Below, piece by piece: positions 14,424 through 64,000 of a stretch of 64,000 bases of DNA; within the stretch, counting starts at the first letter, position 1; the number at the start of each line of letters is the position of its first letter. The stretch is taken from positions 22,937-86,936 of the forward strand of contig CAYNRE010000076.1 of NCBI GenBank assembly GCA_964399535.1, written 5' to 3'. Source of the DNA: an uncultured Pirellulales bacterium (lineage in GTDB: Bacteria > Planctomycetota > Planctomycetia > Pirellulales > CAYNRE01). Made by a program: the position numbers and the translations under genes. The notes under the pieces are model-generated. The model was not told the origin of the DNA. It saw only the letters and a program-made list of their open reading frames with translations, and did not search any database.

Positions 14424-14461
14424 GTGGCCGCCGAGCTAATTGAAAAGCGCCCTCCGCGCGA

Positions 14462-14613: not shown

Positions 14614-14618
14614 GAAGC

Positions 14619-21812: not shown

Positions 21813-22093
21813 TGATCCACCCAGACGTCAATCGATCGCACCCCCCAAAATAGCGACCCCCCATTCTAAGTAGTTCGATCCGCGGCGCCAAACGGTAAGC
21901 AGGGAGGAAGCAAAATCCAATGCTTTCTCGGAGACACGAGTCGACTTGGACACACAGTTGAATCCCACCTAGAATAGGGGCCAACAATGGGGGGTCGCCT
22001 GACCCGTCAAAGGTTGAGTACAGTCAGGATACCTGGGCACCATTGACGCACCGAATTGGGACGATGCGCTTTCGCGGAGCGGAGATAGAAGCA

Positions 22094-33438: not shown

Positions 33439-33557
33439 GGTACTACGGTCGTCCTAGCGCTCGAGCGGCGGGGTCCGGGCCAACCTGTGCGGCGGCCCTG
33501 CTGGGCCAATTGGCCACTGCGGCGGAACACGGCCGGCCTGCACCACGAGGAGGAGCT

Positions 33558-40001: not shown

Positions 40002-40763
40002 TTAGCCAGCGGGTTTTCCTCGCATCCGCCGCGCCGAGAGCGGCGAGACCACCCATTGTTCTCCCGTGGTGTCCAGCGGCAGCGAGAGGGCCATCAAAAT
40101 CACTTCGGCCACCCGCACCGGCGGCAGCGCCCCGGGAGGGGGCGGAACCGGGCCGTTTTGTTGCCAAAGCGGCGTGTCGATGGCGTCGGGCAACACCACC
40201 TGAACGCGAATCCCCAGCCCACGGACCTCTTCGGCAATCGACTCCGAAAGGCTGATGACCCCCGCCTTCGACGCGCTATAGACCGAGTCGAGCGGACGAG
40301 CCTTGCGGCCGCTGGTCGAAGCCAAATTGATAATCTGCCCGGCTTTGCGCGCCACCAAGTGCCGTAGCACCGCCCGGTTGATGAGAAAGGTGCCCTTGAG
40401 ATTGGTGCCGACGACCAGTTCGTATTCCTCGTCGTCGACCTCGACGAGCGGCCGCGGGCGCACCCCCGACGGCCTGAGAATTCCGGCGCAGTGCACCAGG
40501 GCATCGATCTGGCCAAATCGCTCGATCGTCTGATCGACCAGCCGCTGGCAGTCGTCGGCCGAGCGCAAATCGCCCGCCAGCCCCAGCACCTGGGCGCCGG
40601 CAATCTTCCCCAACGGCTCGACGGCGGCGCTGACGCGCTCGGGCCGCAGGTCGCAGATCGCAACACGGGCCCCCTGCGCCACGAGCAATTCGGCCGTGGC
40701 CAGGCCGATGCCGCTGGCAGCCCCGGTGACAAAAATAGACTGGTTTTTCAGGTCAATACTCAC
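40002..40763 (-). CDS. Short-chain dehydrogenase/reductase (FabG-like), 253 aa
   Basis: TGAASGIG, VHCAG, NLKG, YSASK. Confidence 0.92.
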   Translation of the reverse strand: MSIDLKNQSIFVTGAASGIGLATAELLVAQGARVAICDLRPERVSAAVEPLGKIAGAQVLGLAGDLRSADDCQRLVDQTIERFGQIDALVHCAGILRPSGVRPRPLVEVDDEEYELVVGTNLKGTFLINRAVLRHLVARKAGQIINLASTSGRKARPLDSVYSASKAGVISLSESIAEEVRGLGIRVQVVLPDAIDTPLWQQNGPVPPPPGALPPVRVAEVILMALSLPLDTTGEQWVVSPLSARRMRGKPAG

Positions 40764-40840
40764 GGGAAGGCGTCCTGCGGGTCAATCGAGAGGGAGTTGC
40801 AAACAGCCATTTTCAAGAGCTCACCAGACCGGTTCGAGCG

Positions 40841-41665
40841 CTAAGTACCGGTCTCTGGCGGGCGCTGCCAGGCCCGCGGCCGGATCGGTACCAAAAGGGG
40901 CGAGTCCCACTGAGATTGTCCCGGCGCCGCTAGTAGCTCGGCTACCAACCGGCCAACCTCCTCGGGGAGCAGCGAGCCTTGTTTGTTGAGCTGTGTGCCG
41001 GCAATCATGCCCGTCTCGACCACATCGGGCAAGAACGAGAATACTCGCACCCCCTGGGGAGCCACCTCCGCGGCCAAGGCGTCGAGCAGCGCCAGCGCGG
41101 CACGCTTCGAGGCGCAATACCCGGCCCCGAAGCCCAGCCCGCGACGGGCTGCCCGGGCCGAGGAGATATTGACGATCTGTCCGCGTTGCTGGGCCACCAT
41201 CCGCTGGGCAGCCGCACGCACCGTGTAGAACACTCCCCGCAAGTTGGTGTCGAGAATGTCGTCCCAAACCGCTTCGTCGAGCTGGGCCACGGCCTGGGGC
41301 AGGTGGTGCGTCGACAGCGAACTGCGGGCGATGCCCGCGCTGGTGACCAGAATATCGACCCCGCCCAGCGCCTCATCGGCGCGTTGCCACAGCGCGTCGA
41401 TCGCCTCGCGACGGCGGACGTCGCAGCCGGAAAACCCGATGGAGCCTGGCATTTCGCTCACCGCTCGACCGACCTTGGCCCGGTCGCGGCTGGCGATGAG
41501 CAACCGGCAGCCTCGGCCGGCCAGTTCTCGGGCGATGGCCAGCCCGATGCCGCTGGCACCCCCGGTAATCACGGCCCGCTGACCCGCTAACGGGCCGAGC
41601 GGGGGCGGTAGCGGGCTAGTCGTTGGCCCGACCGAACTGGGTAACTGGTTGCCTGGTATCGACAC
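40841..41665 (-). CDS. Short-chain dehydrogenase/reductase (~274 aa)
   Basis: TGGASGIG, VTSAG, NLRG, YCASK. GTG 41665 preceded by a G-rich SD is chosen as start (the ORF is open to 41737). Confidence 0.9.
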   Translation of the reverse strand: MSIPGNQLPSSVGPTTSPLPPPLGPLAGQRAVITGGASGIGLAIARELAGRGCRLLIASRDRAKVGRAVSEMPGSIGFSGCDVRRREAIDALWQRADEALGGVDILVTSAGIARSSLSTHHLPQAVAQLDEAVWDDILDTNLRGVFYTVRAAAQRMVAQQRGQIVNISSARAARRGLGFGAGYCASKRAALALLDALAAEVAPQGVRVFSFLPDVVETGMIAGTQLNKQGSLLPEEVGRLVAELLAAPGQSQWDSPLLVPIRPRAWQRPPETGT

Positions 41666-42303
41666 TACCACCCCCCCCACAGGACACACCGATTCGAGCA
41701 GGCCGGGTGGGGTCCGTCGCGCGGTTCGGACCGGCAACCAGACCCAAAAAACTGGGGCCTATCGAGCCCGGGCTGGGCACGCGCCGCAGCCGGGGCAGGA
41801 TACCGGTCGCGCGCGGCATACTCAACGTTGCTTTAAGAACCTTTAGCGCAGGAAATGCTTGTGTGTCGGGTTGACGGGGTTATGCTAGCTTTTGCCTTCT
41901 CGCCCGTATCGTTCGAGGTGCATTTGGTGGGGAACTCGACGGCCGGGTGGAAGGTACTCGCAGGACCATGGTCTGCCCAATCGCCAGGGTCGGTTGCGCG
42001 CTAAGCAAGGCAGGGCAACTACCCCAGCAACCCGCCGGGTCGCATCCCACCGATCGTCGGGCGTAAGCGCCAGTCGCAGAAAGCAGTAGGTAAGTCGTTG
42101 GCACGCTGGGCTCGCGAGGCGGTTTGCCGCTCGGGCCAAGTCGCTGCTCGCACTGGTCAACCGACCGGCGCCGGGCAAGCGCTCGCGGCGTGAGAACTTC
42201 CCATCACCAGCGGACGTTCTGCTCACATCGATTCGACGCCGAGAATGGCCCCACACGTGGGCGACTGGATGATTGCGCCACCGAGCCACTAGAGAGGACT
42301 CTC

Positions 42304-45300
42304 GTGCAACACAGCGCAGCGCGGGACGGACAGGAGACAGTACAGACCCCGCCGGGCGACCGACCATCAGGCTGCCCCCCACGAGCCCGCCTGGGCGAGG
42401 TGCTGGTTCTAGGCCCAGCCGGCGCCGCCGGATCGGGAATCGCGATCGCCGCTTCGCGCGCCGATGCCTGTGGGCTTTTGGACTGGACCTGTGCGCCGGA
42501 AGCCGTCTCGGCCGACGACGAATGCCTTGCCCCCTTGGTGACCGAAACCCGGCGCCTCGGCGCGCAAGCGGGCGAGCGATTCGGGTTGGTGCTGTGGGGC
42601 CGGCTGGGGATCGTTGAATCGGCCGCTCTGGCGGCGATCGATCGTTGCCACACGCTGCTGCTGGTGCCCACGACCGATCGTCACGAATTGGCCGAAGCCT
42701 ATGCGCGGGCGCGGCTGATCGCCTCTCGGGTGGGCCTCGTCGTGGCCGATTCCGCGCAGGCCGCTTGGGCCGCGGAACTGGGAGCCGACCTGGTGGTCGC
42801 CAAGGGGCATGAAGCCGGCGGTTTCGTGGCCGACGAAACCACGTTCGTCCTCGTGCAGCGGCTTTTGGCCTGGGGCCGGCTCCCGGTGATTGCCTGGGGG
42901 GGGATCGGCGTCCGTTCGGCCGCGGCCGTCAGCGTGGGAGGCGCCGCGGGGGTCGCGCTCGATTGGCCCTTGGCGCTGCTCGGCGAGTCGGCCCTGCCCC
43001 CTGGCTTCCGCAAGCGTCTGGCCAGCATGGATGGGAGCGAGACCGTGGCCGTGCGCGGGCCCGACGGTCGCTGGCTGCGGTTCTATCATCAGCCGGGCAT
43101 GACCGCCCTGGAGCGGCTGGAACGGCTGGCCGACGAATTGGCCACGGCCGACCAAGCCCCCGGCGAGAAGCTTCGCGCCTGGCGGCAAGTGGTGGGGGAA
43201 TTAGCCTCCCGGGCCGGCGAAAAAGATCGGCTCTGGACGACCGGGCAAGATGCCTGTTTCGCCGCCGGTTGGGCCCAGCGCTGCCCCTCGGTGGGGCGCT
43301 TCCTGCGCTTGTTTCGCGAGCAGACCGACCAGGCGCTGGCCGATTGCCGCGCCAGCCGGGTCCTGGCCGCCGGCAGCGAGCTGGCCCAATCGCACGGCAC
43401 CGAATTCCCCGTGGTTCAAGGGCCCATGACCCGGGTCAGCGACGTGGCCTCCTTCGCCCGCGCCGTGGCCGATGGCGGCGGGCTTCCCTTTTTGGCGCTG
43501 GCCCTGATGAGCGGCGGACAAGCCCGCCAACTGCTCAGCGAAACCAAGCAATTGCTCGGCCAGCTTCCCTGGGGCGTGGGCGTATTGGGCTTTGTGGGGC
43601 GCGAGCTGCGCGCTGAGCAGTTTGCCGCCATCGAAGAAGTAGCGCCCCCGTTTGCCATCATCGCCGGCGGGCGCCCCGACCAGGCTCAATCGCTCGAGGC
43701 CCGGGGTATCAAGACCTATCTGCACGTTCCCAGCCCGGGCATGCTCTCGATGTTCCTGGCCGAGGGAGCGCGGCGGTTCATTTTCGAAGGTCGCGAATGC
43801 GGCGGGCACGTGGGCCCACGCTCGAGCCTGGTGCTGTGGGAGACCATGATCCAGGTCTTGCTCGACGCGCCGCTCGACGAGGCACAGGCCCGCGGCGTTC
43901 ACGTGTTGTTCGCCGGTGGAATTCACGACGGGTTGGGGGCCGCCATGGTGGCGGCGCTGGCCCAGCCGTTGGTGGCGCGGGGGATGAAGGTCGGCGTGCT
44001 GCTGGGCACCGCCTATCTGTTCACGCGCGAGATCGTGGAGACCGGCGCGATTCTCGAGGGCTTTCAACAACAGGCCCTGGCGACCGAGCGTACCGTGCTA
44101 CTGGAAACCGGGCCCGGTCACGCCACGCGCTGCGCCGCGACCCATTTCTACGACGTTTTCGAGGAAGAGAAACGCTCGCTCCGTCGCCAACAATTGCCGG
44201 CCGAACAAGTCCGCGAAGAGCTGGAGAACCTGAACCTGGGGCGGCTCCGTATCGCCTCCAAGGGCATTACCCGCCGTACGAGCGAATCCTCGGGCCAGAG
44301 CGAGCTGGTCCACGTGGAAGCTGCCGAACAGGCCCGGGAAGGCATGTTCATGATCGGCCAGGTGGCCGCCCTGCGGCATGAGCCGACCACGGTTCGCCAG
44401 TTGCACCAGCAGGTCTGCGGCGGGGCCACCGAGCGCTTGGCCCAACTGGCCCCCCGGCCCGAGCCCGAGCGCTTCGAGCTGGTCTCTGAGCCGGCCCCGC
44501 CCCCGCTGGATATCGCCGTGATCGGCATGTCGTGCCTGCTGCCCGGCGCACATGACCTGACCCAGTACTGGCACAATATCCTTGCCAACCGCGACTTGCT
44601 CACCGAGATTCCCCAAGATCGCTACGAGTGGCAGCGGTGGTGGAACGAGGACCGCAAGGCCCGCGACAAAATCTACAGCCGTTGGGGCGGCTTCCTCGAC
44701 GACGTGGCGTTCGACCCGCTCAAGTACGGCATTCCCCCCTCGGCCCTCAAGAGCATCGAACCGATTCAACTGTTGGCCCTGGAGCTGGTCGACCGGGCCT
44801 TGCGCGATTCGGGCTACGATGCCCACAACCCACACAAAGACCGCACCGCCGTCATGTTCGGAGCCGGCGGCGGCATCGCCGAGTTGGGGGCCGGTTACGC
44901 GGTGCGCTCGATGCTGCCGCAGTACCTGGAAAACCCCGACGAGCGGCTCTGGTCGCAACTACCCGAGTGGACCGAAGACAGCTTTGCCGGCATTCTGATG
45001 AACGTGATCGCCGGCCGGGTGAGCAATCGCTTCGACCTGGGGGGTGTGAACTACACGGTCGACGCGGCTTGTGCCTCGTCGCTGGCCGCGATTTACCTGG
45101 CTTGCCGCGAACTGGCCGACGGGACCGCCGACCTGTGCATTACCGGCGGCGTCGACACGCTGCAAAGCCCGTTCAGCTACCTCTGTTTCGGCACGGCGGG
45201 CGCGCTCTCGCCCCGCGGCAAATCGCGCACCTTCGATGCCTCGAGCGACGGCATCGCCATTAGCGAAGGCCTGGCCGCCGTGGTGCTCAAGCGGCGGGCC

Positions 45301-48300
45301 GACGCCGAGCGCGACGGCGACCGCATTTACGCCGTCATCCGCGGCGTGGCCGGCGCATCCGACGGGCGGTCCAAGGGTATGACCGCCCCGCGCCACGAAG
45401 GACAGGTGCGCACCTTGCTGCGGGCCTATCGCCAGGCCCGCTTCAGCCCTGCTTCGGTCGATCATTTCGAGGCCCACGGCACTGGCACCTCGGTGGGCGA
45501 CATGACCGAATGCCTGTCGCTAACTCGAGCGCTTGAGTTGGCCGGCGCGGGGCCGGAGAATTCGGCCATCGGCAGCGTCAAATCGCAAATCGGCCATACC
45601 AAGTGCACCGCCGGCGTGGCCGGTTTGATCAAGTCGGCCTTGGCGCTCTACTACCGTGTGTTGCCGCCCACGCTGCACGTCGAACAGCCCAACCCCAAGG
45701 GGCGGCTCGTCGATGGGCCCTTGTATGTCAACAGCCAGGTCCGCCCCTGGATCGCCGGCCCCCAACCGCGGCGCGCCGGCGTCTCGTCGTTCGGCTTCGG
45801 CGGCACCAATTTCCATACGGTGCTCGAGGAATACACGGGCGAACCCGCTCCGGCCCAAGCCCGCATGGCCCGTCGCGAAATGGGTGCCGAACTGCTGCTG
45901 TTCGCCGCCAACGCGCCGGCCGGCCTGTTGCAAAAAGTGCGAAGCCTGGCCGATCCGCTCGCCCGGGCGGTTGCCGCGGGGCACGAACTATCGCTCGCCG
46001 ACCTGGCGGCAACCTGGCATCGCCGCCAATCGACGGCGCCCGAGGGGCCCCGCGCCGCCGTGGTGGCCACCAGCGTCGACGGCCTTCGCGAACAACTGAC
46101 CGCGCTGATCGCGCACTTGTCCGCACCCGGCGGAAACGGAAACCTGCCCGCCGGCGTGAGCTACCGGGCTCAGCCGTTGGCCACAGGCCAGCGGGTAGCG
46201 CTGCTTTTCCCGGGTCAGGGATCGCAGTTTCCCAACATGCTTCGCGACCTGGCCGTGCAGTTCCGCGAAGTGGCCGACGTTTTCAGCCTGGCCGATTCGG
46301 TGCTCGCCGGCGCCTGGTCCAAGCCGCTCAGCCGCCACGTCTTCCCGGTTCCGGCGTTTAATCCCCAGCAGCAGCGCAGCCAGGTCGAAGCGCTTAAGGC
46401 CACCGACGTACTTCAACCGGCGCTAGGCGCCTGTGGGCTGGCACTCTTGCGGCTGCTCGAGGGCCTGGGCGTTCGCGCCACCATGGCCGCGGGGCACAGC
46501 TATGGCGAGCTCGTGGCCCTGGCCGCGGCCGGCAGCCTCTCGCCCGAAAGCTTGCTGCGGCTGTCGCTAGCCCGGGGTCGCTCAATCGTCGAACTGGTTT
46601 CCAGCGGTCAACAGAAAGAATTGGGCCAAATGCTGGCTATCGCCGCGCCGGGGCCTGAAGTGGCCGATGCCCTGGCCGGCCTGCCCGAAGTATGGTTGGC
46701 GAACCTGAACAGCCCGCGGCAAACCATCGTGAGCGGCACGGCCTCGGGTCTGGCGGGGGTTCGGCAGCGGCTCGACGAGCGGAAGCTGGCCGCCACTCCC
46801 CTGCCCGTGGCCTGCGCCTTCCACAGCCCGTTGGTCGCCGCGGCCGGAGCCCGGTTTGCCGAGGCGCTTTCGCAAACCGAATTCCGCGCCCCGCGCTGGG
46901 AGGTGTTTGGCAACACCACGGCCGACGCATACCCCGACGATCCGGCCGTGATTCGCCGCCGCCTGACCGAGCACCTGACCAGCCAGGTGCGGTTCGTCGA
47001 ACAAATTGAAGCCATGTACGCCGCCGGGGCGCGGGTGTTCGTCGAGCTGGGCCCCAAGGGGGTGTTGAGCAAGCTGACCCGCGAAATTCTGGGCGATCGC
47101 CCTCACCTGGCCGTACCGCTGCAGCCGAGCGAAACCGACGGCGTGCGGCAACTCTTGGGCGGTCTGGCCGAATTGTTCGTCGCGGGGGTTCCGCTCGACC
47201 CAGAACGGCTGTATCAAGGCCGCGAATTGGCCACCTTGGACCTGGCCGCGCTGGCGCAGCCGAAGGCGCCGCCGGCCAAACACCTGTGGCTGATCAACGG
47301 CGGCTACGCGCGCCCGATTCACCAGCCCAAGCGGACCATGCCGCGCCGAGTTCGCCTGGTGGGCGAGGGGGAAGTCGCCGTGTCGGGCAGCGCGCCGGCC
47401 CCGGCTGCCGCGCCCGCGATCTCCGCGTCCGCCGGGCCGTCGATGGCTCCGGCGGCGAGCCCTGTTGCGGCCCCTCAGGCACCGGCTGTCGCCTCACTGC
47501 CCCTGGCCCCGGTCCCCGCCCAAGTTCCGGCGGTTTCCGCTGCCGCGGTTCCCATTCCCTCGGCCCCGAGTGCGGTCTCGGGCGACGCCCTGGTCGATTT
47601 CCAAGAGACGATGCGCTACTTCCTGGCCATGCAGGAAGCGGTGATGACCTCGTACTTCCAAGGGGCACCGGCCGCGGCTGCCCCCGCGGGCACGGTGATT
47701 CCCGTGGCCGCGCCGGCCGCTGCTGCGCCCCCGATCGCCGTCGCGTCGGTGCCCGCGCCGCAGGGGGTCGTCGCGCCAGCCGGGCCGCCGCAAGTGGTGC
47801 CCGCGGCGGCGCAAACGCCCCCTGCCCTCCCGCCGGTCGCCGTGGTGGTCAGCTCCCCGGCTGGGACCGAGCCGGCCGCCGACCGGGCCATGGCCGACGA
47901 GAACTCCTCGCAACCTGCCCTGGCACCGGCGCTCAGCCGCCAAGGACTGGGCGATCTGCTGGTGAACATTGTCAGCGAGCGCACCGGGTACCCCTCCGAC
48001 ATGCTTGAGATGAGCGCCAACCTCGAGGCCGATCTGGGGATCGACTCGATCAAACGGGTGGAAATTGTCGGCGCGTTCCGCCGCGCCGCCCTGCCCGAGT
48101 TGCAGGAGCCCCCGGCCTGGTTCATGGAAAAGGTGACCGGAGTCACCACGCTTCGCCAAATCGTCGATACGGTCGCGGAACTGGCAGGAGCCACGCAGGC
48201 GGGAACCGACGCCGCCACGCCCCCGCCTTCGACCGCGGCCACCGCCGAGGTTGCGACGGTCCGGGAAGAAGCGCTCGAAGAACTGTTGATGAACGTGGTC

Positions 48301-51114: not shown

Positions 51115-54100
51115 CCCAGGGCCACCACGCGCCTGCCGAGGGCCAGGGCCGGGCCGTCTCCGAGGCCCCTGAAATGGCCGCCGACGAGGTCGCCATCGTC
51201 GGGATGGCCTGCATCGTGCCGGGCGCCGACAGCCCCGGCCGCTTCTGGCAGAACATCGTCGGCAAGTTCGACGCCGTCTCCGAGCCCACCCCCGACTGGC
51301 AGCCCGAGATGTTCGCCGACCCGCACCGGGCCGACCGGGTGTACACGGCCCGGGGGGGTTACCTGGGGGAACTGAGCCGGTTCAACTCGGCCCGCTACGG
51401 CATCATGCCTTCGAGCATCGAGGGGGCCGAACCGGACCAGTTCCTGGCCTTTCGCTGCGCGATCGAGGCCCTGGAAGACGCCGGATACCCCCAGATACCG
51501 CTCTCGCGGGAAAAGACCGGGGTAATTGTCGGCCGGGGCATCTTCGTCAACCGCGGCATGTACACCATGTACGCCCAGGGGTACCTGGTCGAACAGGTGG
51601 TCGATTTGCTCCACCGGCTTGAGCCCGGCCGCAGCGACGACGAGCTGGACCTGATTCGCCGCGAGTTGAAACGGCACCTCCCCCCCTTCAACGCCGAGAC
51701 GGTGCCGGGGCTCACCCACAATGTGCTGGCAGGTCGGATCGCCAACCGGCTCGACCTGAACGGCCCCGCCTACATGGTCGACGCCGCCTGCGCTTCGGCC
51801 CTGATCGCGGCCGAGCAGGGCATTCGCGAGTTGAAGACCGGTCACTGCGACGCGGTGATTATCGGCGGCGTGCAGGTCTCGACGCCGGGGATGGTGACCA
51901 AGGCGTTTTGCCATCTCGAAGCGCTCAGCAAAACGGGCCGCATCGCCCCTTTCTCGGCCGAGGCCAATGGAACGCTCTTGGGGCAAGGCTGCGGCATGCT
52001 GGTGCTCAAGCGGCGGCGCGACGCCGAGCGCGACGGCAACCGCATTTACGCCTTGCTGCGGGCCGTGGGTACCTCGTCCGACGGCAAGGGCTCGGGCCTG
52101 CTCGCGCCCAGCCAGGCCGGGCAAGAGCTGGCTGTGCGCCGGGCCTACGCCGAGGCAGGAGTCGACCCCGGCACCGTCGAATTGATCGAAGCCCACGGCA
52201 CCGGCATTCCGCTGGGCGACCAAACCGAGCTGCGCACGCTACGGGCCTGCTTCGGTGCGCGCCAGGGCAGCCGCCCCACGGTGGCGGTGGGCAGCGTCAA
52301 GTCGATGATCAGCCACTTGATTCCGGCTTCCGGCGCGGCCTCGCTGATCAAGACGGCGCTGGCCGTTTACCACCGGGTGCTGCCCCCGATGCTGCACGCC
52401 GAGAAGGCCAACCCCGAGCTGAAGTTGGCCGAATCGCCGTTTTATCTTTCGACCGAAGCGCGCCCCTGGATCCACGGCCAGGCCGCCCCGCGCCGCGCGG
52501 GGGTGAACGCCTTCGGTTTCGGCGGCATCAATGCCCACGCGATTCTCGAAGCGTACGAGCCCCCGAACGAGGCGGCGCTTCCTTCGCTGGAACGTCAGTG
52601 GCCCAGCGAGTTGGTCGTGGTTTCGGCCGAGGATCGCGCCGGGCTGTTGACTCGCTGCCGTCAGCTCGAGGGCTGGCTCGAACCCGCCAGCGAGCTGAGC
52701 CTGGTCGACGTGGCGGCGTCGCTAGCCGCCGAGCGGGGGCGCAGCCGGTTGGCGATCGTCGCGGCCGATCTGGCCGACCTGCGTAAGAAACTGGCTCAGG
52801 CCCAGCGACTGCTGGCCGACCCGGCCCGCGACAAAATCCAGGATCGCAGCGGCATTTTCTGGTATGCCCAGCCGCTGGCGGCCGGGGCAGCCGACGGCCG
52901 AGCCACCGACCTGGGGCGCGTGGCCTGCGTGTTTCCGGGGGAAGGGGCCCAGTACCCCGGCATGTTGGCCGACCTGTGCCGGCACTTTCCCGCGGTGCGG
53001 CATCAATTCGACCTGACCGACGCCGCTTTCCTGCAGAGCCGCCTGGGGCAGCCGCTCAGCCCGCTGATTTATCCCCCCCCCGAGTGCGCCGATCAGGCGG
53101 AAGCCGAGCTGCGCGAGTTGGGCGGGGCGGTTACCAGCGTCACCCTGGCCTCGCGAGCACTGTGGGCCCTGCTGGAACAGTTGCAGCTTCGGCCCGACGC
53201 CATCGTGGGGCACTCCAGTGGAGAATTCGGCGCCCTGATGGCCGCCGGGGTCATCGCCCCAAAAACCGAGGGCGAGTTGATTCGCGCCTTGGCCGAGGGG
53301 GCGGAAAACGCCGCCGAGCTGGCCCACTCCGGCCTGGTGCAGCCAGCCGTGCTGACCGCCGTGGGGGGCGCCGACCGCCAGGCCGTGGCCAACGTGCTGG
53401 CGGCCGCCGGAGGGGCCTTGACCGTGGCCATGGACAACTGCCCCAGCCAGCTCGTCCTTTCGGGCGACGACCAGAGTACCGCCGCCGCGCTCGACGGGCT
53501 GCGCGGCAAGGGGGGGCTCTGCGAACGGTTGCCCTGGGGTCGCGCCTACCACACGCCGGCCTTCGCCCCGGCCGTCGAGATCATGCGGAAATACTACGAC
53601 CGCGTGGGGCTGCGGGCGCCAAACGTGGAGCTCTGGAGCTGTTCAACCGCTGGCCGATTTCCCAACGACGCGGCCGGCGCCCAGAAGCTGGCCCTCCAGC
53701 AGTGGAGCACCCCGGTTCGGTTCCGGGAAACCGTCGAGGCGATGTACGCCGCCGGCGTGCGCGTGTTCGTCGAGGTGGGGCCGCGCGGCAACCTCTCGGC
53801 CTTTATCAGCGATACCTTGGCCCGCTCGCCGCACCTGGCCGTTCCGCTCGATTTGCCCCGCCGCGACGGCGTGACCCAGCTTTGCCGGGCGTTGGGGCAA
53901 CTCGTGGCCCACGGCGTGCCGCTCGACTGGTCGGTGTTGTACGAGCGCCGCCGTCCGGCAGCGCTCGATTTCAACGCCCCGCCGCCGAAGCCCGCCAGGC
54001 TCGACCCCCAATTGGAATTGAAACTGCCCGAGCTACAGGTCTCGGACGAAGCGGCCCGGCAGTGGCAGGCGGGGCTCGCGCGGCCCGCAGCTTCGAAGGG

Positions 54101-56876: not shown

Positions 56877-56993
56877 ACGCGGCCTGGCAGGGCGCGTGGT
56901 GAAACAACCGTCTTGTCAGGTCGCGCCGGTCGGGGATGATGGACGGTTGACGCTTTTGGCACAGCTTCGACGTGGGTGGCGAGACGAATCGAA

Positions 56994-58589
56994 ATGCGAA
57001 CCGTATTGTTTGGATTGGACGGGGCCACGTTCACCGTGCTCGACGACCTGGTCGCCCGGGGCGTCATGCCCAACCTGGCCAAGGTCTATGCCCAGGGGGC
57101 TCGGGCCAAGCTGGCCTCGACCGCCCTGCCGCTGACGCCCCAAGCCTGGACCAGCATGGCCACCGGCCGCACCGGGGGCCATCACGGCATCAGCGACTGG
57201 GTGCGCTTTCGCTGGGGCCCCGAGGGCAACTACGGCCACATTAACAACGCCCGCGACATCCATGCCGAAACCATCTGGCAATATGCCTCGCGCTCGGGCC
57301 GCCGAGTAACCGTACTGAATTACTTCGGCCTGGCGCCCCCCTCGCCGCTGGCCGGGCACTCCATGCCGGGGTTCACCTCGGGGCGCCATCTGCGCCGATC
57401 GAGCTGGCCCAGCGACCTGTTTGCCCGCCTGGAGCAGGTGCCCGATTTCGACGTGAAAACCCTGGGGCTCGACCTGGAGATCGAGCGCCAGGTGCTGCAG
57501 GAAATGCCGGCCGACCAGTGGCGCCCCTGGCTCGAACATCACATCGCTCGCGATCGCATCTGGTTCGGGGTGCTGGAACACCTGATGCGGACCGAGCCGA
57601 GCGACCTGTCGGCCATCGTTTTCGATGGGGTCGACAAGCTGCAGCACCTGGCCTGGCGGCTCTTGGATCCGGCCCTGGCGACCGACCAGGCCAGCGACTG
57701 GGACCACCAGGTTCGGGACCTGTGTCACGACTACTTCCGGCAAATCGACCGTTTCCTGGGCCGCGTGCTGGAGTTGTTGGGGCCCTGGGGCCGGGTCTTC
57801 GTCGTCTCCGATCATGGCTTCACCGCCTCGACGGAAATCTTCTACGTCAACAAATGGCTGGCCGACCGCGGCTACCTGGTCTGGAAGGGCCAGCAGCAGC
57901 TCGACCAGGACGAGGCCTGCGCCACGGCCAAGCCCGAGAACGACGCCAACGCCATCGACCTGGAGCAAAGCCGGGCGTTTGCCTTCACTCCCAGCGCTAA
58001 TGGAATCTTTCTGCAGGTTCCGGGCGACCAATACGAGGCGATCTGCGGCCAGATTACCCGGGAGCTACTGGCCCTGCGTGGTCCCGATGGCGGCCAGGTG
58101 GTTACGGCGGTCAAACGGCGCGACCAGGTCTTCGCCGGGCCCTACATGGAAAACTTCCCCGACCTGACGCTGGAGCTGCGCGACCACGGGTTTGTTTCGG
58201 TGTTGAACTCGGCCGTGGTGCTCAGGCCCCGCCGAGTGCCGATGGGCACCCACCATCCGCAGGGTGTAATTCTGGGCGCGGGGCCCGGCATTCGCGCCGG
58301 TGCCCAGGTCGACCTGCTCAGCATCCTGGACGTGGCCCCGCTGTTGGCCCACAGCTTGGGATTGGAGATTCCGGCCGACTACGAAGGCGAATTCCCCGCT
58401 TCGCTGTACGACCCCAGCTACCTGGCAAGCGATCCGCCCCGGCGCGCCGCCGAGCAGGTGCCGGCGGATCGACAGGCCCCCGCGGATCGGCAGGCCCCGG
58501 GCACGGCGGGCGAGGAGGCCAGCGAATTGGACGGCGAGGAGGAAACCGCCATTTACGAGCGGCTGCGGAGCCTGGGGTACATCGAGTGA
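56994..58589 (+). CDS. Alkaline-phosphatase superfamily protein (type I phosphodiesterase/NPP-like), 531 aa
   Basis: GLDGA, PLTPQAWTSMATG (Thr nucleophile position), DGVDKLQH, SDHG, GTHHP; C-terminus RLRSLGYIE. Confidence 0.88.
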   Translation: MRTVLFGLDGATFTVLDDLVARGVMPNLAKVYAQGARAKLASTALPLTPQAWTSMATGRTGGHHGISDWVRFRWGPEGNYGHINNARDIHAETIWQYASRSGRRVTVLNYFGLAPPSPLAGHSMPGFTSGRHLRRSSWPSDLFARLEQVPDFDVKTLGLDLEIERQVLQEMPADQWRPWLEHHIARDRIWFGVLEHLMRTEPSDLSAIVFDGVDKLQHLAWRLLDPALATDQASDWDHQVRDLCHDYFRQIDRFLGRVLELLGPWGRVFVVSDHGFTASTEIFYVNKWLADRGYLVWKGQQQLDQDEACATAKPENDANAIDLEQSRAFAFTPSANGIFLQVPGDQYEAICGQITRELLALRGPDGGQVVTAVKRRDQVFAGPYMENFPDLTLELRDHGFVSVLNSAVVLRPRRVPMGTHHPQGVILGAGPGIRAGAQVDLLSILDVAPLLAHSLGLEIPADYEGEFPASLYDPSYLASDPPRRAAEQVPADRQAPADRQAPGTAGEEASELDGEEETAIYERLRSLGYIE

Positions 58590-61237
58590 GCAGCGCCCCC
58601 CTCAGCGCGCCCGCCCGCGACGCCCGGCCGGCCCGGGCACTGTCGATGGGGCACTTTCGGCGCGTGGCGGCCGGCGGCTTCGGCGACGGGCGCAATAGCT
58701 ACGCATACGGCTACGCCTGGTACGACGGCCACGTTTACATCGGCACCAACCGCGACTTGCTGGTGATGGCCAAGACGCGGTTTCGCTACACGGTCCCCTC
58801 GGTGATCTGGCCGGTCGAGGTACCTACCGACTTCAACACGGCCGACCGTGGCGGCCAGATTTGGCGCTACAATCCCCAGACCGATGTTTGGCAGTGCGTT
58901 TACCGCTCGCCGATTGTCGCGGGGCTCGAAGGGCGCACCGTGCCGTTGGCCGCCGGGTTTCGCAATCTGTGCGTGTTTCAGGGGCGCAGCGACCCGCGCC
59001 CGGCGCTGTACACCATTCCCAGTTGCGGCTCCTTCGGCAAGGGGCCGGTCATGCTCCGCTCGATCGACGGCGTTCACTTCGAGCCGATTACCGAGCAGGG
59101 AATGGGGCTGGGCGACCCGAACGTCACCGCCTTTCGTTCGCTGCTGGTCTTCCAAGACCGGCTGTTTACCACGCCGGCGGGCTCGCGCGGCGGCGACCCC
59201 AACGTTTCCTACTTCGCCTCGATCCTGTGCACCGAGGACCCGCTCTCGGGCCGCTGGGAGCGAACCAACGTAGGTTCCTTTGGCGACCCCACCAACTACG
59301 GCATTTACGACATGTGCGTCGCCGGCGATTGGCTCTACGCCGGCACGATGAACATTCGCGAAGGCTGTCAGCTCTGGAAAACCCGGGCCGAGGGCAAGCC
59401 ACCGTTCCACTGGGTCAAGGTGTTCGATCGCGGCGCCGATCGCGGCATCTTGAACCAGGGCGTGGTTTGCCTCTGCGCTTATGGCGACGCCGTGTACTTG
59501 GGCACCGGCATTCAAAACGGCGGCTTCGACCGGGTGAACAACGTGGGGCCCGACGCCGCGGAAGTGATTCGCGTATTTCCCGACGACACTTGGGAGTTGG
59601 TGGCCGGCACGCCGCGCATGACGCGCCAAGGGCTGAAGGTGCCCGTCAGCGGGCTCACCGCCGGCTTTGGCAACCCGTTCGCCGGCTACGTTTGGCGAAT
59701 GTGTGCCCACGAGGGGGCGATTTACGTCGGCACCTACGATGGCTCGTCGATGCTTCGCTATGCCGAGCTCGATGCCCGGGCCCAACGCATTTTCGATCCG
59801 GCCACGATGGAACACTTCATGCGGTTTCGAGGCGGCTGCGAGCTCTGGCGCTCGGCCGACGGCAATCACTGGTCGCCGGTAACTCGCAACGGCTTCGGCA
59901 ACCCGAACAACTGGGGCATTCGCACGCTGCTCTCCACGCCGGCCGGGCTGTTCGTGGGAACGGCGAACCCCTTTGGGCCACGGTCTGCGCTGCGCGGCAT
60001 CGGCGGCTGGCGATACGAAGACAATCCGCAAGGCGGGATCGAAGTTTGGCACGGGGCCTGGCAACATGCCGGCCCGCGCGATCGCCCCCCGAGCCTCGAG
60101 GCCGAGCGGGAACCGGTGTGGGTGCCCGACGCCACCAGCCCGCCGGGCGAGCAGGTGCTGGCGCTGCCGGAGCTGGGCGGGGCGCTGCGCGAGCCGGCGG
60201 GGGTCGAGCAAAGCATCGACCGCAGTGCCTGGCTCGACACGCTCTGGGACGAGGCGGGGCGGTTGATCGATGCGGGCCCCCTAGGCGAACGGGCGCGCCC
60301 CAGCCGGGGAAGCGAAAACCAACCCCGGCACACTGTCCGCGACCGAGAACAGCTAGCGCACGAACATTTTTCCGCGCATCCCAATGGTCAACTCAGCCGG
60401 TCAAGCCCCGGCACCTCGAGTCCCCTCACGGGGGTGGAAGATGCGCTCTCGGAATATTATCTTGGCACTGAGCTGCGCAACACCGGGTATTGGCGGGAGG
60501 AAACCCAGTCGGCGGCCAGGGCGGCACGATTGCTCGTCGAGGAACTGCTGGCCCTGGTGCCGGCAGACACCGGGGCGGAGCCAGGTGCCGAATCCGCGCC
60601 GCGGCACGGGTCGCCCGAGCGAGTGCTGGTGATTGGCCGAGGAGGCGCGGAGCTCAGTGGCCTGGTCGCCGCGCGCTGGCCAGGCTGCACGGTTACCACC
60701 TGGGGTCCGGGAATGCTCGCGGATCCTACGCCTGAGAGCCCAACCACCTGGCCGCTCGCTTCGCAATCGGTCGATCGGGTGGTCTGGATCGAGGGGCCCT
60801 GGTGCAGCGGCGCGGGGGAAGCGGGAATCCGCGAGGCGCTGCGGATCCTGCGGCCGGGCGGATTGCTGGTGGCCTCGGACCTGGTCGGTGCGCCGCGTGA
60901 AGCGGGCCGGCCCGCGCCGGCGGCGTTTCGCCAGGAGCTAGGCAGCCAGTATTACCCGGCGGTACTGGCGCGATATCGCCAGGAGTTGCTCGGCGCTGGA
61001 TTTGAAGAAGCGGAAACGCACGATCTGACTTATTACGGGTGGCTGCGGTTCTGCCGGCACAACCGGCAGTACTTCATTACCCGGTTGTTGTTTCACCACT
61101 TGGACCAAGAGTTGCTTACCGCCGTGCTCGGGTCGCTGCCGGGGGGCAACCTGCTGGTAGCCGCCCACGTGGCATGCCTGGCCCGCAAGTCGCCTCGCGC
61201 GTGCGAAACGGCCCTGGCAGCGCAGTCTGCCGACTAA
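58586..61237 (+). CDS. Two-domain protein: beta-propeller-like N-terminal domain plus C-terminal SAM-methyltransferase-like domain (883 aa)
   Basis: GTGA overlap with the upstream gene. Repeated GFG(D/N)xxN/LYxGT/xWRS blades; C-terminal NTGYW, RVLVIGRGG, EALRILRPGGLLVASD. Confidence 0.65.
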   Translation: MSSAPLSAPARDARPARALSMGHFRRVAAGGFGDGRNSYAYGYAWYDGHVYIGTNRDLLVMAKTRFRYTVPSVIWPVEVPTDFNTADRGGQIWRYNPQTDVWQCVYRSPIVAGLEGRTVPLAAGFRNLCVFQGRSDPRPALYTIPSCGSFGKGPVMLRSIDGVHFEPITEQGMGLGDPNVTAFRSLLVFQDRLFTTPAGSRGGDPNVSYFASILCTEDPLSGRWERTNVGSFGDPTNYGIYDMCVAGDWLYAGTMNIREGCQLWKTRAEGKPPFHWVKVFDRGADRGILNQGVVCLCAYGDAVYLGTGIQNGGFDRVNNVGPDAAEVIRVFPDDTWELVAGTPRMTRQGLKVPVSGLTAGFGNPFAGYVWRMCAHEGAIYVGTYDGSSMLRYAELDARAQRIFDPATMEHFMRFRGGCELWRSADGNHWSPVTRNGFGNPNNWGIRTLLSTPAGLFVGTANPFGPRSALRGIGGWRYEDNPQGGIEVWHGAWQHAGPRDRPPSLEAEREPVWVPDATSPPGEQVLALPELGGALREPAGVEQSIDRSAWLDTLWDEAGRLIDAGPLGERARPSRGSENQPRHTVRDREQLAHEHFSAHPNGQLSRSSPGTSSPLTGVEDALSEYYLGTELRNTGYWREETQSAARAARLLVEELLALVPADTGAEPGAESAPRHGSPERVLVIGRGGAELSGLVAARWPGCTVTTWGPGMLADPTPESPTTWPLASQSVDRVVWIEGPWCSGAGEAGIREALRILRPGGLLVASDLVGAPREAGRPAPAAFRQELGSQYYPAVLARYRQELLGAGFEEAETHDLTYYGWLRFCRHNRQYFITRLLFHHLDQELLTAVLGSLPGGNLLVAAHVACLARKSPRACETALAAQSAD

Positions 61238-61262
61238 CCCCGACGGTTTCGAGGATTGCCCG

Positions 61263-61562
61263 ATGCCCGACACCACACCCGACCGCGACACGATCGTCAA
61301 AGAGCTTGTCGCCGTGCTTTCCGACATGACCGCCGATTGGGACACCGCCAGCGAAGGCCCGATTGGCCCGCAGACTCGCTTGATCGCTGACCTGGGCTTT
61401 GAGTCGATCGACGTGGTGCACCTGGTCGTGGCCATCGAAGAGCGCTTTCAGCGGCGGGATTTTCCTTTCCAAGAACTGCTCATGGAAAATGGGCAGTACG
61501 TCGACGAGCTGACCGTGGCCCAAGTGGTCGATTTCATCGCCCGCAGTTTGAGTGCTTCCTGA
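61263..61562 (+). CDS. Stand-alone acyl carrier protein (99 aa)
   Basis: LIADLGFESIDVVHLVVAIEERF (Ser at 61404), acidic composition, LTVAQVVDFI. Confidence 0.9.
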   Translation: MPDTTPDRDTIVKELVAVLSDMTADWDTASEGPIGPQTRLIADLGFESIDVVHLVVAIEERFQRRDFPFQELLMENGQYVDELTVAQVVDFIARSLSAS

Positions 61563-61651
61563 TCGGTGACGCGAGAGTTCCGCCGGCCCGACCCGCGCGA
61601 GCGCTTCGCGCTGGGCGGAGATGACCAACACGCTCGGAGACGACTGGTCTG

Positions 61652-63247
61652 ATGCATCCCACCGTGCTGATTGGTTTGGACGGGGCCACGTTCACCGTCT
61701 TCGACGCCCTGATCGCCGAGGGACACCTGCCGCACCTGGGTGCCCTGATGGCCCGGGGAGTGCGCGCCGAGCTGCTCTCGACTCCCCACCCGCTCACGCC
61801 GCCGGCCTGGACCACGCTGATGACCGGGCGGAGCCCCGGCGAGCACGGGATTTACGATTTTCTGCGGGCCGAAATCCGTGACGACGGAGCCTTCTTCACG
61901 CTGAACAACTTTCGCGACGTGCGTTGCGAAACCATCTGGAGCATTGTCAGCCGCCAGGGGGGGCGAATCACCTCGCTCAATTTCCCGCTCATGGCTCCCC
62001 CGCCGCCGGTCAACGGCTGCCTGGTGCCGGGGCTGTTGTCGTGGCGCCACCTGCGGCGCAATGTGCTGCCGGCCGAGCTGTACGACGAGCTGAAGTCGCT
62101 TCCCCAGTTCAAGCCGCAGGAGTTGTCTTGGGATTTTGAGCGCGAACGCAAGGGCACCCAGGTGCTGCCCGACGACGAGCTGGAAGATTGGGTCCGCTTC
62201 CACATTCGCCGCGAGCAGCAGTGGTACGAGATTACGCGCCACGTGATGCAGCGTCACCCGGCCGATCTGACCGCGATGATGTACGACGGAACCGACAAGC
62301 TGCAGCACAGTTGTTGGCGGTTTCTCGATCCCCGCTACCTGGCCTCCCAGCCCGACGCCTTCCAGCGGCTGCTCCGCGAACTTTCGGTGCAGTACTTCCG
62401 CGAGCTCGACGAGTTCGTGGGCGAAATCGTCGCCCTGGCCGGCCCCCAAGCCCGGGTGTTCATTGCCTCGGACCATGGGTTCGGCCCCAACGAGATCGTG
62501 CTGCGCATTAACAAATGGCTGGAATCGCGGGGTTACTTGCGGTGGCAGGCCAAAACCGCGGGTCCCGCCCCCAAAACCGGCAACGCGCACTACGTGCTCT
62601 TGGACTGGGAACACACCCAGGCCTATGCCCAGAGCGGCGCCACCAACGGGATTCACATCCGGGTCCGCGAAGAGGGGCATCGCGGCGGCATTGCCCGGGC
62701 CGACTACGGCGCTTTCTGCCGGCAATTGGCCGACGAGCTGCTGGCCCTCCGCGATCCGCGAACCGGGCAGGCCGTGGTGACCGCCGTGTTGCGCCGCGAA
62801 GAGATTTACCCCGGCCAGGCCTTCGACAAGGCCCCCGACCTGACGCTGGTGCTGGCCGACCACGGTTTCTTCAGCGTGCTCGATGCCGAGCCGATCGTCG
62901 ATACTCGCCCGGTCGTGGCCGGCACCCATTATCCGGAGGGGGTGTTGATCGCGGCGGGCCCGGGAATTCGCCAGGGGGAGCGGCTTCCGCAGCAGCGCAT
63001 TCTGGACGTGGCGGCTACGTTGCTCTACAGCCTGGGGCTGCCGATTCCCTCGGATTTCGAAAGCCAGGTTATGGACGGCCTGTTCGAGCCCGGTTTTCGC
63101 TCGGCTCATCCGGCCAAGATCGGCCCCCCCACGCAGCGCCCCGCGCAGTTCGCCGCCACGGCGTGCGAAGCCGAAACGGCCGAAGAATCGCAAGACTCGG
63201 AAGAAAAGATTCTCAACCGGCTGCGAGCGCTGGGTTATGTGGAGTAG
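61652..63247 (+). CDS. Second alkaline-phosphatase/NPP-superfamily protein, 531 aa, paralogue of 56994-58589
   Basis: GLDGA, PLTPPAWTTLMTG, DGTDKLQH, SDHG, GTHYP; C-terminus RLRALGYVE. Confidence 0.88.
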   Translation: MHPTVLIGLDGATFTVFDALIAEGHLPHLGALMARGVRAELLSTPHPLTPPAWTTLMTGRSPGEHGIYDFLRAEIRDDGAFFTLNNFRDVRCETIWSIVSRQGGRITSLNFPLMAPPPPVNGCLVPGLLSWRHLRRNVLPAELYDELKSLPQFKPQELSWDFERERKGTQVLPDDELEDWVRFHIRREQQWYEITRHVMQRHPADLTAMMYDGTDKLQHSCWRFLDPRYLASQPDAFQRLLRELSVQYFRELDEFVGEIVALAGPQARVFIASDHGFGPNEIVLRINKWLESRGYLRWQAKTAGPAPKTGNAHYVLLDWEHTQAYAQSGATNGIHIRVREEGHRGGIARADYGAFCRQLADELLALRDPRTGQAVVTAVLRREEIYPGQAFDKAPDLTLVLADHGFFSVLDAEPIVDTRPVVAGTHYPEGVLIAAGPGIRQGERLPQQRILDVAATLLYSLGLPIPSDFESQVMDGLFEPGFRSAHPAKIGPPTQRPAQFAATACEAETAEESQDSEEKILNRLRALGYVE

Positions 63248-63291
63248 CCCGTGCCTGCCCGACATCGCGCGCAATCAGGAGGGCGCCGCGG

Positions 63292-64000
63292 ATGCCCAAC
63301 CGGTTTGGCCCCCGGCTGTTGAGCCCGGTGCGTACGGTCCTCGGCGGTCTGCTCCTGGCGGGCTGGGCCCTGGTCGGGGGATGGGCCTCGGCGGCGCAAC
63401 CCCCCAAGGCGCCGCCGGCACCACCGGCATTGGCCCAGCCAACCAACGTGTCTAGCGTGGCCGGCGACTTCGTCCATACCCTCCGCACCACCGACGGCCG
63501 TACGCGCCGCTACCTGGTGCACACGCCGCCAAGCTACGACGGCCGCCGCCCCCTGCCCGTGGTGCTCGCCTTTCATGGCGGCGGCGGGCGCGCCGAAACC
63601 ATGGTTCGTCAAAGCCGTCTCAACCCGGTGGCCGACAAATACGGCTTCGTTGTGGTCTATCCCGACGGCACCGGCCGGCTACGGCTGCTCACCTTCAATG
63701 CAGGCACCTGTTGCGGTTACGCCGTGGCGAAAAAGGTCGACGACGTCGCTTTCGTCAGCCAGTTGCTCGACGCATTGCCGGGACGCTACGCGATCGACCC
63801 GCGCCGGGTTTACGCCACGGGGATGAGCAACGGAGCGATGTTTTGCTATCGACTGGCGGCTGAGCTTTCCGAGCGGATCGCGGCCATTGCCCCGGTTGCC
63901 GGCGATATGGGGGTCGATGGCCCGCAACCCCGCCGCAGCGTGCCGGTGATGCACTTTCACGGGTTGGCCGATCGCAATGTGCTTTACGAAGGAGGGCTCG
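63292..64000 (+). CDS. 3'-partial secreted PHB-depolymerase/LpqC-like esterase (absent from the ORF track because it has no stop in the window)
   Basis: ATG 63292 with AGGAGG SD; signal peptide ending WASAA; RRYLVHTP, LPVVLAFHGGGG, GFVVVYPDG, VDDVAF, TGMSNGA (63817-63837), MHFHGLAD. The frame is open to the window end. Confidence 0.88.
   Translation, partial: MPNRFGPRLLSPVRTVLGGLLLAGWALVGGWASAAQPPKAPPAPPALAQPTNVSSVAGDFVHTLRTTDGRTRRYLVHTPPSYDGRRPLPVVLAFHGGGGRAETMVRQSRLNPVADKYGFVVVYPDGTGRLRLLTFNAGTCCGYAVAKKVDDVAFVSQLLDALPGRYAIDPRRVYATGMSNGAMFCYRLAAELSERIAAIAPVAGDMGVDGPQPRRSVPVMHFHGLADRNVLYEGGL

Follow-up and report, generated by a model that had tools for sequence, protein, structure and literature searches.

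The window analysed here is a stretch of 64,000 nucleotides from contig CAYNRE010000076.1 of an uncultured Pirellulales bacterium. Its end (positions 40002 to 64000) holds a gene cluster that encodes two polyketide synthases (PKSs), here called PKS1 and PKS2, and an accessory cassette comprising two phosphodiesterases of the NPP family, a beta-propeller protein, a free acyl carrier protein (ACP) and a secreted esterase. Two genes for short-chain dehydrogenases/reductases (SDRs) are divergent from the PKS operon, with an intergenic region between them, and the genes from PKS1 to the esterase form a co-directional row with short or overlapping junctions; the stop codon of NPP1 overlaps the start of the propeller gene. 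Synthase domains are abbreviated as KS (ketosynthase), AT (acyltransferase), KR (ketoreductase), DH (dehydratase), ER (enoylreductase) and PPTase (phosphopantetheinyl transferase). The genes are the following.

40002-40763, (-) strand: SDR a, FabG-like (PF00106, E 9e-53)
40841-41737, (-) strand: SDR b, FabG-like (PF00106, E 1.6e-45)
42124-51114, (+) strand: PKS1, PfaA/PfaD-like iterative synthase (Pfam and TIGR02813)
51018-56876, (+) strand: open reading frame (ORF) of PKS2, KS-AT-ACP-DH-PPTase, with a probable ATG at 51174 (Pfam)
56976-58589, (+) strand: NPP1, phosphodiesterase-type (PF01663, E 6.5e-31)
58586-61237, (+) strand: beta-propeller and methyltransferase-like protein, 883 aa (predicted fold and homologues)
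61263-61562, (+) strand: stand-alone ACP (TIGR00517, E 3e-7)
61652-63247, (+) strand: NPP2, phosphodiesterase-type (PF01663, E 4.8e-40)
63292-64000, (+) strand: secreted esterase of the polyhydroxyalkanoate (PHA) depolymerase type, cut by the window end (PF10503, NF050058)

Domain E-values in the cluster are as low as 1e-66, far beyond chance. The initial annotation, made from the letters of the sequence, had described an ER-KS-AT-ACP2-KR-DH protein, a KS-AT-ACP-DH-PPTase protein, the accessory genes and the divergent SDRs, and all of them were found where it had put them. It had also seen no thioesterase or non-ribosomal peptide synthetase domain, and profile searches with both databases found none in 40002-64000. 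This holds for the window; most related clusters (see below) do have an alpha/beta hydrolase gene between the NPP and propeller genes, where the window subtype has a second NPP copy instead.

By Pfam, PKS1 has the order FabK-type ER-KS-AT-ACP-ACP-KR-DH, made up of these segments.

42727-43122, residues ~202-333: partial FabK-like segment, matching FabK positions 114-246
43381-44418, residues 420-765: ER of the NMO/FabK type (PF03060, 73.7 bits)
44509-45684, residues 796-1187: KS
46204-47190, residues 1361-1689: AT
~47956-48183: ACP1, with Ser 1975
~48283-48513: ACP2, with Ser 2084
49360-50049, residues 2413-2642: KR
50245-51066, residues 2708-2981: DH, PKS-type

The N-terminal part of PKS1 matches FabK structures twice, with the partial segment and then with the complete ER. 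Its true start is uncertain, and the first ~90 codons of the ORF look non-coding. The KS carries the motifs VDAACASS, EAHGTGT and GHT, and the AT carries GHSYG; judged by these motifs (KS Cys-His-His, AT GHSxG), both domains are catalytically intact. Both ACPs contain the sequence DLGIDSIKRVEI, the motif LGIDSIKRVEI thus occurring twice. On the PfaA model TIGR02813, PKS1 scores 1184.6 bits, against a cut-off of 1010.1.

PKS2 is composed as follows.

51183-52400, residues 56-461: KS
52929-53825, residues 638-936: AT
54849-55067: ACP, with the motif DLGIDSIKRVEV
55194-56027, residues 1393-1670: DH
56490-56750, residues 1825-1911: integrated PPTase (PF01648)

In PKS2 too, the Cys-His-His residues of the KS (VDAACASA, EAHGTGI, SH) and the GHSSG motif of the AT are preserved, and by this criterion KS and AT are catalytically intact. 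The three integrated ACPs of the two synthases share the motif LGIDSIKRVE(I/V), and both DH domains show HxxxG/D and DxxxQ motifs. Pfam finds no KR and no ER domain in PKS2. A hidden KR was ruled out: the 340-residue stretch from AT to ACP is an Ala/Pro-rich low-complexity linker, as in PKS1. The KS-AT region of PKS2 has its top score on the PfaA model. The same architecture recurs in three related loci (L085, L086 and L003) and, divided between two proteins, in a fourth (L002).

PKS1 resembles the polyunsaturated fatty acid (PUFA) synthase encoded by pfaEABCD in its order KS-MAT-tandem ACP-KR-DH, its Ala/Pro-rich ACP linkers, its LGIDSIKRVEI motifs and its FabK/NMO-type ER. The initial annotation had assigned the megasynthases to the Pfa/Hgl kind, and the TIGR02813 score above the cut-off, the tandem Ala/Pro-linked ACPs and the FabK-type ER bear this out. 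In contrast with pfa clusters, the ER is here fused to the N-terminus of PKS1 and preceded by the partial second FabK-like segment; PfaB and PfaC (KS-CLF plus two FabA-type DHs, CLF being a chain length factor) are missing, the second synthase being KS-AT-ACP-DH-PPTase; and the NPP, propeller, free ACP and secreted esterase have no counterpart in pfa clusters. Neither KS of the cluster is a CLF; both keep Cys-His-His. Pfam found no FabA-type dehydratase/isomerase domain, the only DH matches being to PS-DH and PKS_DH_N. A canonical PUFA synthase was therefore rejected, since PfaA-type and PfaD-type parts are present but the KS-CLF pair and the FabA-type DH are not.

Two other known systems were rejected. 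For a heterocyst glycolipid synthase (hglEGDCA/B, hglT), no KS-CLF-AT protein, ACP-thioester reductase or glycosyltransferase was found in 40002-64000 or in the relatives' clusters examined. The enediyne synthase PKSE (KS-AT-ACP-KR-DH-PPTase) is like PKS2 in that the latter is a single iterative module ending in DH and an integrated PPTase. PKS2, however, lacks the KR, and the cluster has no hot-dog thioesterase and no E3/E4/E5 genes. The best solved-structure matches of PKS2 are KS-AT didomains of modular PKSs, with no annotated enediyne PKS among them. UnbV/ASPIC-domain genes are present at positions 1-5973 of the window, 35 kb from the cluster and in an unrelated TPR/FG-GAP setting.

The closest described counterparts of the synthases are uncharacterised types of 'secondary lipid synthase' listed by Shulse and Allen (2011; PMC3098273). 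Their Type J, from Planctomyces limnophilus, consists of an ER and KS-MAT-ACP3-KR and is 'apparently partial'; their Type O is from Dinoroseobacter, Gloeobacter and Parvularcula; the product of either is given as not known. Compared by description only, Type J resembles the present cluster as a planctomycete pair of ER and PfaA-like protein with an orphan product. On the same basis, Type O is perhaps similar in its taxonomic spread, the propeller/NPP cassette having been found in Gloeobacterales and Paracoccaceae. That study, however, describes pfa-like genes only and does not mention NPP, propeller, ACP or esterase genes. The synthase core is of the known Pfa/Hgl secondary-lipid kind, and the accessory cassette (free ACP, NPP, propeller and secreted esterase) is new to it. 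The swf cluster of sponge symbionts (PMC3908369) is likewise a widespread orphan iterative PKS/fatty acid synthase cluster linked to a sulfotransferase, but identity with it was ruled out, the architectures of SwfA (KS-AT-DH-ER-KR-ACP), SwfB (reductase-sulfotransferase) and SwfC (radical SAM enzyme) all differing from the present cluster. In a 2026 description of a new planctomycete genus, clusters of this sort are named no more specifically than type I PKS or hglE-KS, and no product is given. The gene set had not been recognised as a characterised pathway on first reading, and full-text literature searches agree with this, as no paper characterising the gene set or its product was found.

NPP1 and NPP2 are paralogues (42% identical). 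Their length of 530 aa, compared with ~380 aa for known NPPs, reflects large insertions, and a conserved LGY motif stands at the C-terminal end of the cluster NPPs. In a 52-sequence alignment including both window copies, D10, T49, D215, H219, D274, H275 and H426 are invariant. The counterparts of D10 and T49 in the Xanthomonas (Xac) NPP are, by alignment, D54 and the nucleophile T90; from their position and motifs, we take D215, H219, D274, H275 and H426 to be the remaining NPP metal ligands. With the AlphaFold2 model of NPP2 (predicted local distance difference test score, pLDDT, 88.6), the top Foldseek matches were Xac NPP, ENPP6, ENPP1/3, autotaxin and the phosphonoacetate hydrolase PhnA, the best being 2gsn, 5egh and 4b56 (E ~1e-17, TMt ~0.67). 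No signal peptide or hydrophobic segment was found in NPP1 or NPP2. Because the metal ligands and the Thr are invariant, the predicted fold is that of an NPP and such N-terminal or membrane signals are missing, both proteins are predicted, on the evidence of model and active site, to be intact, cytoplasmic, hydrolytic phosphodiesterases of the NPP type. They have the fold, the six metal ligands and the Thr nucleophile in common with Xanthomonas NPP, ENPP1/3, ENPP6 and autotaxin, but differ from these in being cytoplasmic, larger, LGY-ended and encoded beside an ACP within a PKS cluster.

The 883-aa protein encoded between NPP1 and the ACP has no Pfam or NCBIfam match of its own. It consists of two parts.

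~58643-60070, (+) strand: propeller part, N-terminal 500 residues
~60443-61237, (+) strand: methyltransferase-like part, C-terminal

The N-terminal 500 residues form a beta-propeller in the AlphaFold2 model (pLDDT 93; predicted template modelling score, pTM, 0.92). This propeller has no close solved structure: the best matches in the PDB are generic Kelch, lectin and peptidase propellers with TMq <=0.45, and so provide no functional lead. The protein has 839 homologues, and the propeller family comprises 384 representative clusters at E<=1e-30. Across phyla the propeller is 43-48% identical. Many of its Arg, Asp, Glu, Asn, Tyr and Trp residues do not vary, and R56, R126, D136, R158, R184, D218, R286, D315, E326, R329, R344 and R446 are among the invariant positions. 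Some full-length homologues (45-46% identity) carry PF08241 at their C-terminus, and through these relatives the C-terminal domain appears homologous to class I methyltransferases. Its activity is uncertain, because motif I for S-adenosylmethionine (SAM) is divergent in the planctomycete branch (VLVIGRGGAE in the window, against DVGCGTG or DIGCGMG in proteobacterial members). Remote relatives of the propeller are fused to secreted subtilase, PKD and TSP3 modules; these fusions hint at binding as a role, but give no information on the cytoplasmic proteins of the clusters.

With the propeller as query, synteny was found in three distant lineages, represented by Schlesneria paludicola, a Desulfobulbaceae metagenome-assembled genome (MAG) and a Methylococcales MAG. 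The order in Schlesneria is ER-PKS1, PKS2, ACP, NPP, alpha/beta hydrolase, propeller-methyltransferase, methyltransferase, SDR, SDR, Esterase_PHB, TPR. A scan of one genome per species with the same query gave 139 relatives, and 80 loci were kept. Their hosts are Planctomycetota, Thermodesulfobacteriota, Methylococcales, Competibacteraceae, Alphaproteobacteria (Bosea, Roseivivax, Frigidibacter), Tectomicrobia/Entotheonellaceae, Nitrospiria, Acidobacteriota, Rokubacteria, Chondromyces, Acidimicrobiia and many Cyanobacteria. The window itself comes from a member of the Planctomycetota, to judge from its sequence, because the best homologues of its propeller and of NPP2 belong to Pirellulales, Planctomycetales and Phycisphaerae assemblies.

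Co-occurrence was counted in the 43 loci whose propeller gene has 8 kb or more of sequence on both sides. The propeller was accompanied by an NPP in 35 of them, by a free ACP in 31, by an esterase in 29 and by a PKS2-type KS in 19; an NPP was also found in 17 of the 19 loci with a PKS2-type KS. Clustering of the ORFs gave the recurrent order PKS-PKS-ACP-NPP-ABH-propeller, in which ABH is the alpha/beta hydrolase, a protein of ~300 aa of the Abhydrolase_1 family that adjoins ACP-NPP in 35 loci. A reverse search from NPP2 homologues also reached PKS clusters, in Thermodesulfobacteriota strain B35 and in a metagenomic contig (L086). The latter has the order of the window (PKS2, NPP1, propeller-methyltransferase, ACP, NPP2, esterase), followed by a TPR protein and then by unrelated genes. 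By comparison with this contig, the window subtype probably ends about two genes past the window and lacks the alpha/beta hydrolase, small methyltransferase and HlyD genes. Across phyla, the genes for the NPP, the propeller-methyltransferase and the ACP are thus firmly conserved together with the PKS genes. The initial annotation had named a lack of such co-conservation of the NPP and methyltransferase genes as grounds for its refutation, and on this point it stands.

The related loci contain further recurrent genes, for PF13469 sulfotransferases (34 loci), HlyD-type adaptors (32 loci), TPR proteins, methyltransferases, SDRs, TauD-type dioxygenases and additional esterases (PAF-AH/chlorophyllase-like, BD-FAE and beta-lactamase-fold). 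No curated family name could be given to the ABH, the small methyltransferase, the sulfotransferase or the TauD and TPR proteins of the relatives, as their matches (BioC, BioH and PcaD among them) were weak and far below cut-off. Fusions of NPP with ABH and of propeller with SDR, seen in high-GC loci, were discarded as artefacts of taking the longest ORF, the reading frames being different.

Some of these loci show peculiarities of their own. The HlyD-type adaptor (L064, 17500-19869, (-) strand; homologues in 32 loci) begins with a fused membrane domain similar to the intramembrane HExxH metalloprotease known from daptide clusters, with a score of 61 bits on NF041824 that is below cut-off. Upstream of the HlyD gene, four loci from Competibacteraceae and other Proteobacteria (L027, L037, L064 and L032) encode two or three paralogues of the propeller, every one of them paired with a sulfotransferase gene; such pairing suggests iterative or combinatorial tailoring. 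In three Thermodesulfobacteriota loci (L085, at 14300-16710, L002 and L033), two genes for family III CoA-transferases lie between the hydrolase/SDR genes and the propeller gene. A gene for a B12-binding radical SAM protein is inserted there as well in L002 and L033, and L085 has two CMAS-like methyltransferases besides.

The free ACP of the window has the motif DLGFESIDVV, with the Ser present. In 28 of 40 loci the next gene downstream of this ACP is an NPP. The window is one of these loci, as the ACP precedes NPP2 there despite the rearrangement. This adjacency points to carrier-protein chemistry rather than to attachment of a head group. Three cyanobacterial loci (L052, L056 and L075) encode the free ACP and a PF13469 sulfotransferase as one fusion protein, which indicates that this ACP carries the substrate being tailored.

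In tblastn searches against the SDRs that lie inside the Schlesneria and Pirellulales clusters, SDR a scored 224-230 bits and SDR b 135-184 bits. The true start of SDR b is probably downstream of the ORF start, since the Pfam match begins at residue 54. Two SDRs also lie inside the cluster in L001 and L085. As PKS2 has no KR and two SDRs are conserved in the cluster, these SDRs are candidate trans-acting ketoreductases. The esterase was compared with NF050058, the catalytic domain of extracellular type-1 short-chain PHA depolymerases (cut-off 150 bits). The window copy, cut by the window end, reaches 135 bits over model positions 4-137, and its full-length orthologues reach 153-176 bits. Signal-like N-termini are present in the window esterase and in the copies of L001, L085 and L086. 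In Roseivivax, a PPTase is fused to an esterase-family domain.

These findings led us to give roughly even chances to an orphan secondary-lipid pathway in which tailoring of the chain takes place on the free ACP and its final destination lies outside the cytoplasm. In this scheme, the PPTase of PKS2 would prime the three integrated ACPs and the free ACP. PKS1 would iteratively build a long, largely reduced acyl chain from malonyl-CoA, and PKS2 would add the last unit or units, with the free SDRs performing ketoreduction in trans and leaving a beta-hydroxy or enoyl end. The chain would then be passed to the free ACP, which would serve as the tailoring platform, the NPP enzymes and the propeller acting on or beside it. 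Our preferred guess, for which support is weak, is that the NPP might hydrolyse a phosphodiester of a carrier-linked intermediate during release, possibly the Ser-phosphopantetheine bond; cleavage of the latter would explain the dedicated PPTase. The product would finally leave the cytoplasm, and the secreted esterase would trim or recycle its ester-linked form. In the relatives, the product may be decorated with sulfate or methyl groups and exported via TPR/HlyD-type systems.

The last steps of this scheme draw on the genes of the relatives. Export adaptors, TPR proteins and a secreted esterase imply export of the product, or of a precursor, from the cytoplasm, and the sulfotransferases of some phyla and the O-methyltransferase-like enzymes of others imply free hydroxyl or carboxyl groups on it. 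Taken together, the sulfotransferases, O-methyltransferases, esterases and export adaptors suggest a hydroxylated, ester-containing, exported lipid.

Several observations weigh against the pathway just described. The window subtype lacks precisely the alpha/beta hydrolase, small methyltransferase and HlyD genes that shape the picture in the relatives. Some cyanobacterial loci lack an NPP altogether, and in the alphaproteobacterial loci the ACP lies several kb from the NPP, with no PKS within 10 kb. The NPP step is the least supported of the mechanism: adjacency favours a carrier-linked phosphodiester, but the alphaproteobacterial and some cyanobacterial loci break the pattern. NPP-family enzymes are not known to act on ACPs, and this sub-step is suggested by gene adjacency. 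Given the secreted-module fusions of its remote relatives, the propeller may be a binding domain and not an enzyme. Finally, no product or enzyme activity has been published for any member, so that everything past domain assignment is inferred.

A bolder form of the same pathway is a long shot. According to it, the NPPs would off-load or recycle chains by cleaving acyl-phosphopantetheine-ACP or another carrier-linked phosphodiester, the PPTase of PKS2 would re-prime the ACP at each turn, the propeller would represent a new family of tailoring enzymes, and the product would belong to a widespread, unseen class of exported lipids. If this were true, the lipid would carry sulfate in cyanobacteria and proteobacteria, and in planctomycetes it would be methylated or undecorated.

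The initial annotation had instead proposed a lipid with a phospho(di)ester-linked head group. The NPPs would then transfer a phospho-head group onto a lipid hydroxyl via their Thr nucleophile, much as EptA and LtaS do. With the Thr and the bimetal site intact, transfer to an alcohol instead of water is possible in principle; ENPP6 and autotaxin, both among the structural neighbours, are active on lipid head groups, and the NPP gene is duplicated in the window subtype. Yet neither NPP has a signal peptide or membrane segment, and the closest structures are soluble hydrolases of the NPP branch, not sulfatase-type membrane transferases. No kinase, CDP-alcohol transferase or head-group synthesis gene was found in the window or in the related clusters examined, and the tight ACP-NPP adjacency favours carrier chemistry. 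With cytoplasmic NPPs of hydrolytic rather than EptA/LtaS type, we found no evidence supporting the head group, and consider it unlikely.

We would likewise grant only a small chance to an ester-linked hydroxy-fatty-acid exolipid of the 3-(3-hydroxyalkanoyloxy)alkanoate or estolide type, in which the ABH would condense beta-hydroxyacyl-ACPs in a RhlA-like manner, with optional sulfation or methylation, export, and turnover by the esterase. This would account for the Abhydrolase_1 protein beside ACP-NPP, for the many additional esterases of the relatives and the esterase orthologues that pass the NF050058 cut-off, for the common HlyD-type adaptors, and for sulfotransferases and O-methyltransferases, which imply free hydroxyl or carboxyl groups. 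It would, however, leave the NPP and the propeller without a role, the window subtype has no alpha/beta hydrolase, and the matches of the ABH to named families are all far below cut-offs.

A hydrocarbon route like that of CurM and the olefin synthase Ols is improbable. The beta-hydroxyl of an ACP-bound chain would be activated (by sulfate in the relatives), and a hydrolase would trigger decarboxylative elimination to a terminal alkene. The three cyanobacterial ACP-PF13469 sulfotransferase fusions, with an alpha/beta hydrolase encoded nearby, mirror the ACP-sulfotransferase-thioesterase logic of CurM (PMC3908369), and although PKS2 lacks a KR, the free SDRs could leave a beta-hydroxyl. But sulfotransferase and alpha/beta hydrolase are both missing from the window and its close relatives, the several sulfotransferases per locus in relatives look like decoration rather than a single activation step, and hydrocarbons need no export adaptors or secreted esterases. 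Finally, an ordinary PUFA synthase (eicosapentaenoic or docosahexaenoic acid type), heterocyst-glycolipid synthase or enediyne PKSE cluster has next to no chance, for against the PfaA score, the tandem ACPs, the FabK-type ER and the PKSE-like DH-PPTase end of PKS2 stand two KSs that both retain the catalytic Cys and, among the missing parts listed above, the KS-CLF pair, FabA-type dehydratase/isomerase, thioester reductase, glycosyltransferase, KR of PKSE and hot-dog thioesterase, as well as the modular-PKS character of the best structures.

The cluster is well delimited and widely conserved, and its cassette shares 40-50% identity between Planctomycetota and Cyanobacteria, Proteobacteria, Acidobacteriota, Nitrospiria and Tectomicrobia. 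Such conservation points to a common bacterial lipid or exolipid, which may escape routine lipid analysis. The question can be put directly to the test in cultured carriers, namely Schlesneria paludicola, Thermodesulfobacteriota strain B35, Roseivivax halotolerans, Frigidibacter albus and Bosea sp. 117. Solving the cluster would assign a function to two sizeable families, the propeller and the 530-aa 'AlkP superfamily phosphohydrolase/phosphomutase' group, and the cluster would gain greatly in significance if a new reaction on a carrier protein proved to be catalysed by the NPP or the propeller.

The G+C content of the window is ~68%, with no compositional break at the cluster, and Rfam and tRNA scans of the window found no RNA genes. 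The genes upstream of 40000 are unrelated to the cluster and encode ASPIC/UnbV-FG-GAP-TPR and TPR proteins, a multihaem cytochrome, an S9 peptidase, a sulfatase and a PKD/RTX protein. Adjoining the cluster, at 33899-39226 ((-) strand), lies the gene for a protein of 1775 aa that contains He_PIG, PKD and RTX calcium-binding repeats and is probably secreted or exposed at the surface; it was not found beside related clusters. The sulfatase (31729-33453, (-) strand; PF00884, E 5.6e-53) is of the formylglycine type and, though likewise a member of the alkaline-phosphatase superfamily, is unrelated to the NPPs of the cluster.

At the other end of the window, positions 1-5973 ((+) strand) contain three consecutive ORFs of ~650 aa in one reading frame. 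The first comprises an AhpC/TSA redoxin domain and TPR repeats, and the start of the second, which has an ATG of its own at 2002, is signal-like. FG-GAP repeats end the second ORF C-terminally and ASPIC/UnbV opens the third, across the TGA at 3976-3978, so that a CRTAC1-like architecture appears to be split over two ORFs. Two convergent genes, at 10062-14423 ((+) strand) and 14619-18974 ((-) strand), encode TPR-rich proteins of near-equal length (~1450 aa), possibly paralogues. They are followed by an ORF of ~925 aa with no Pfam match (19044-21827, (-) strand) and by one of ~1097 aa (22043-25336, (+) strand) with sub-threshold matches only, to ASH/Cep192-type beta-sandwich domains. The stretch from 22 to 24 kb has the highest G+C content (0.72) and a positive GC skew.

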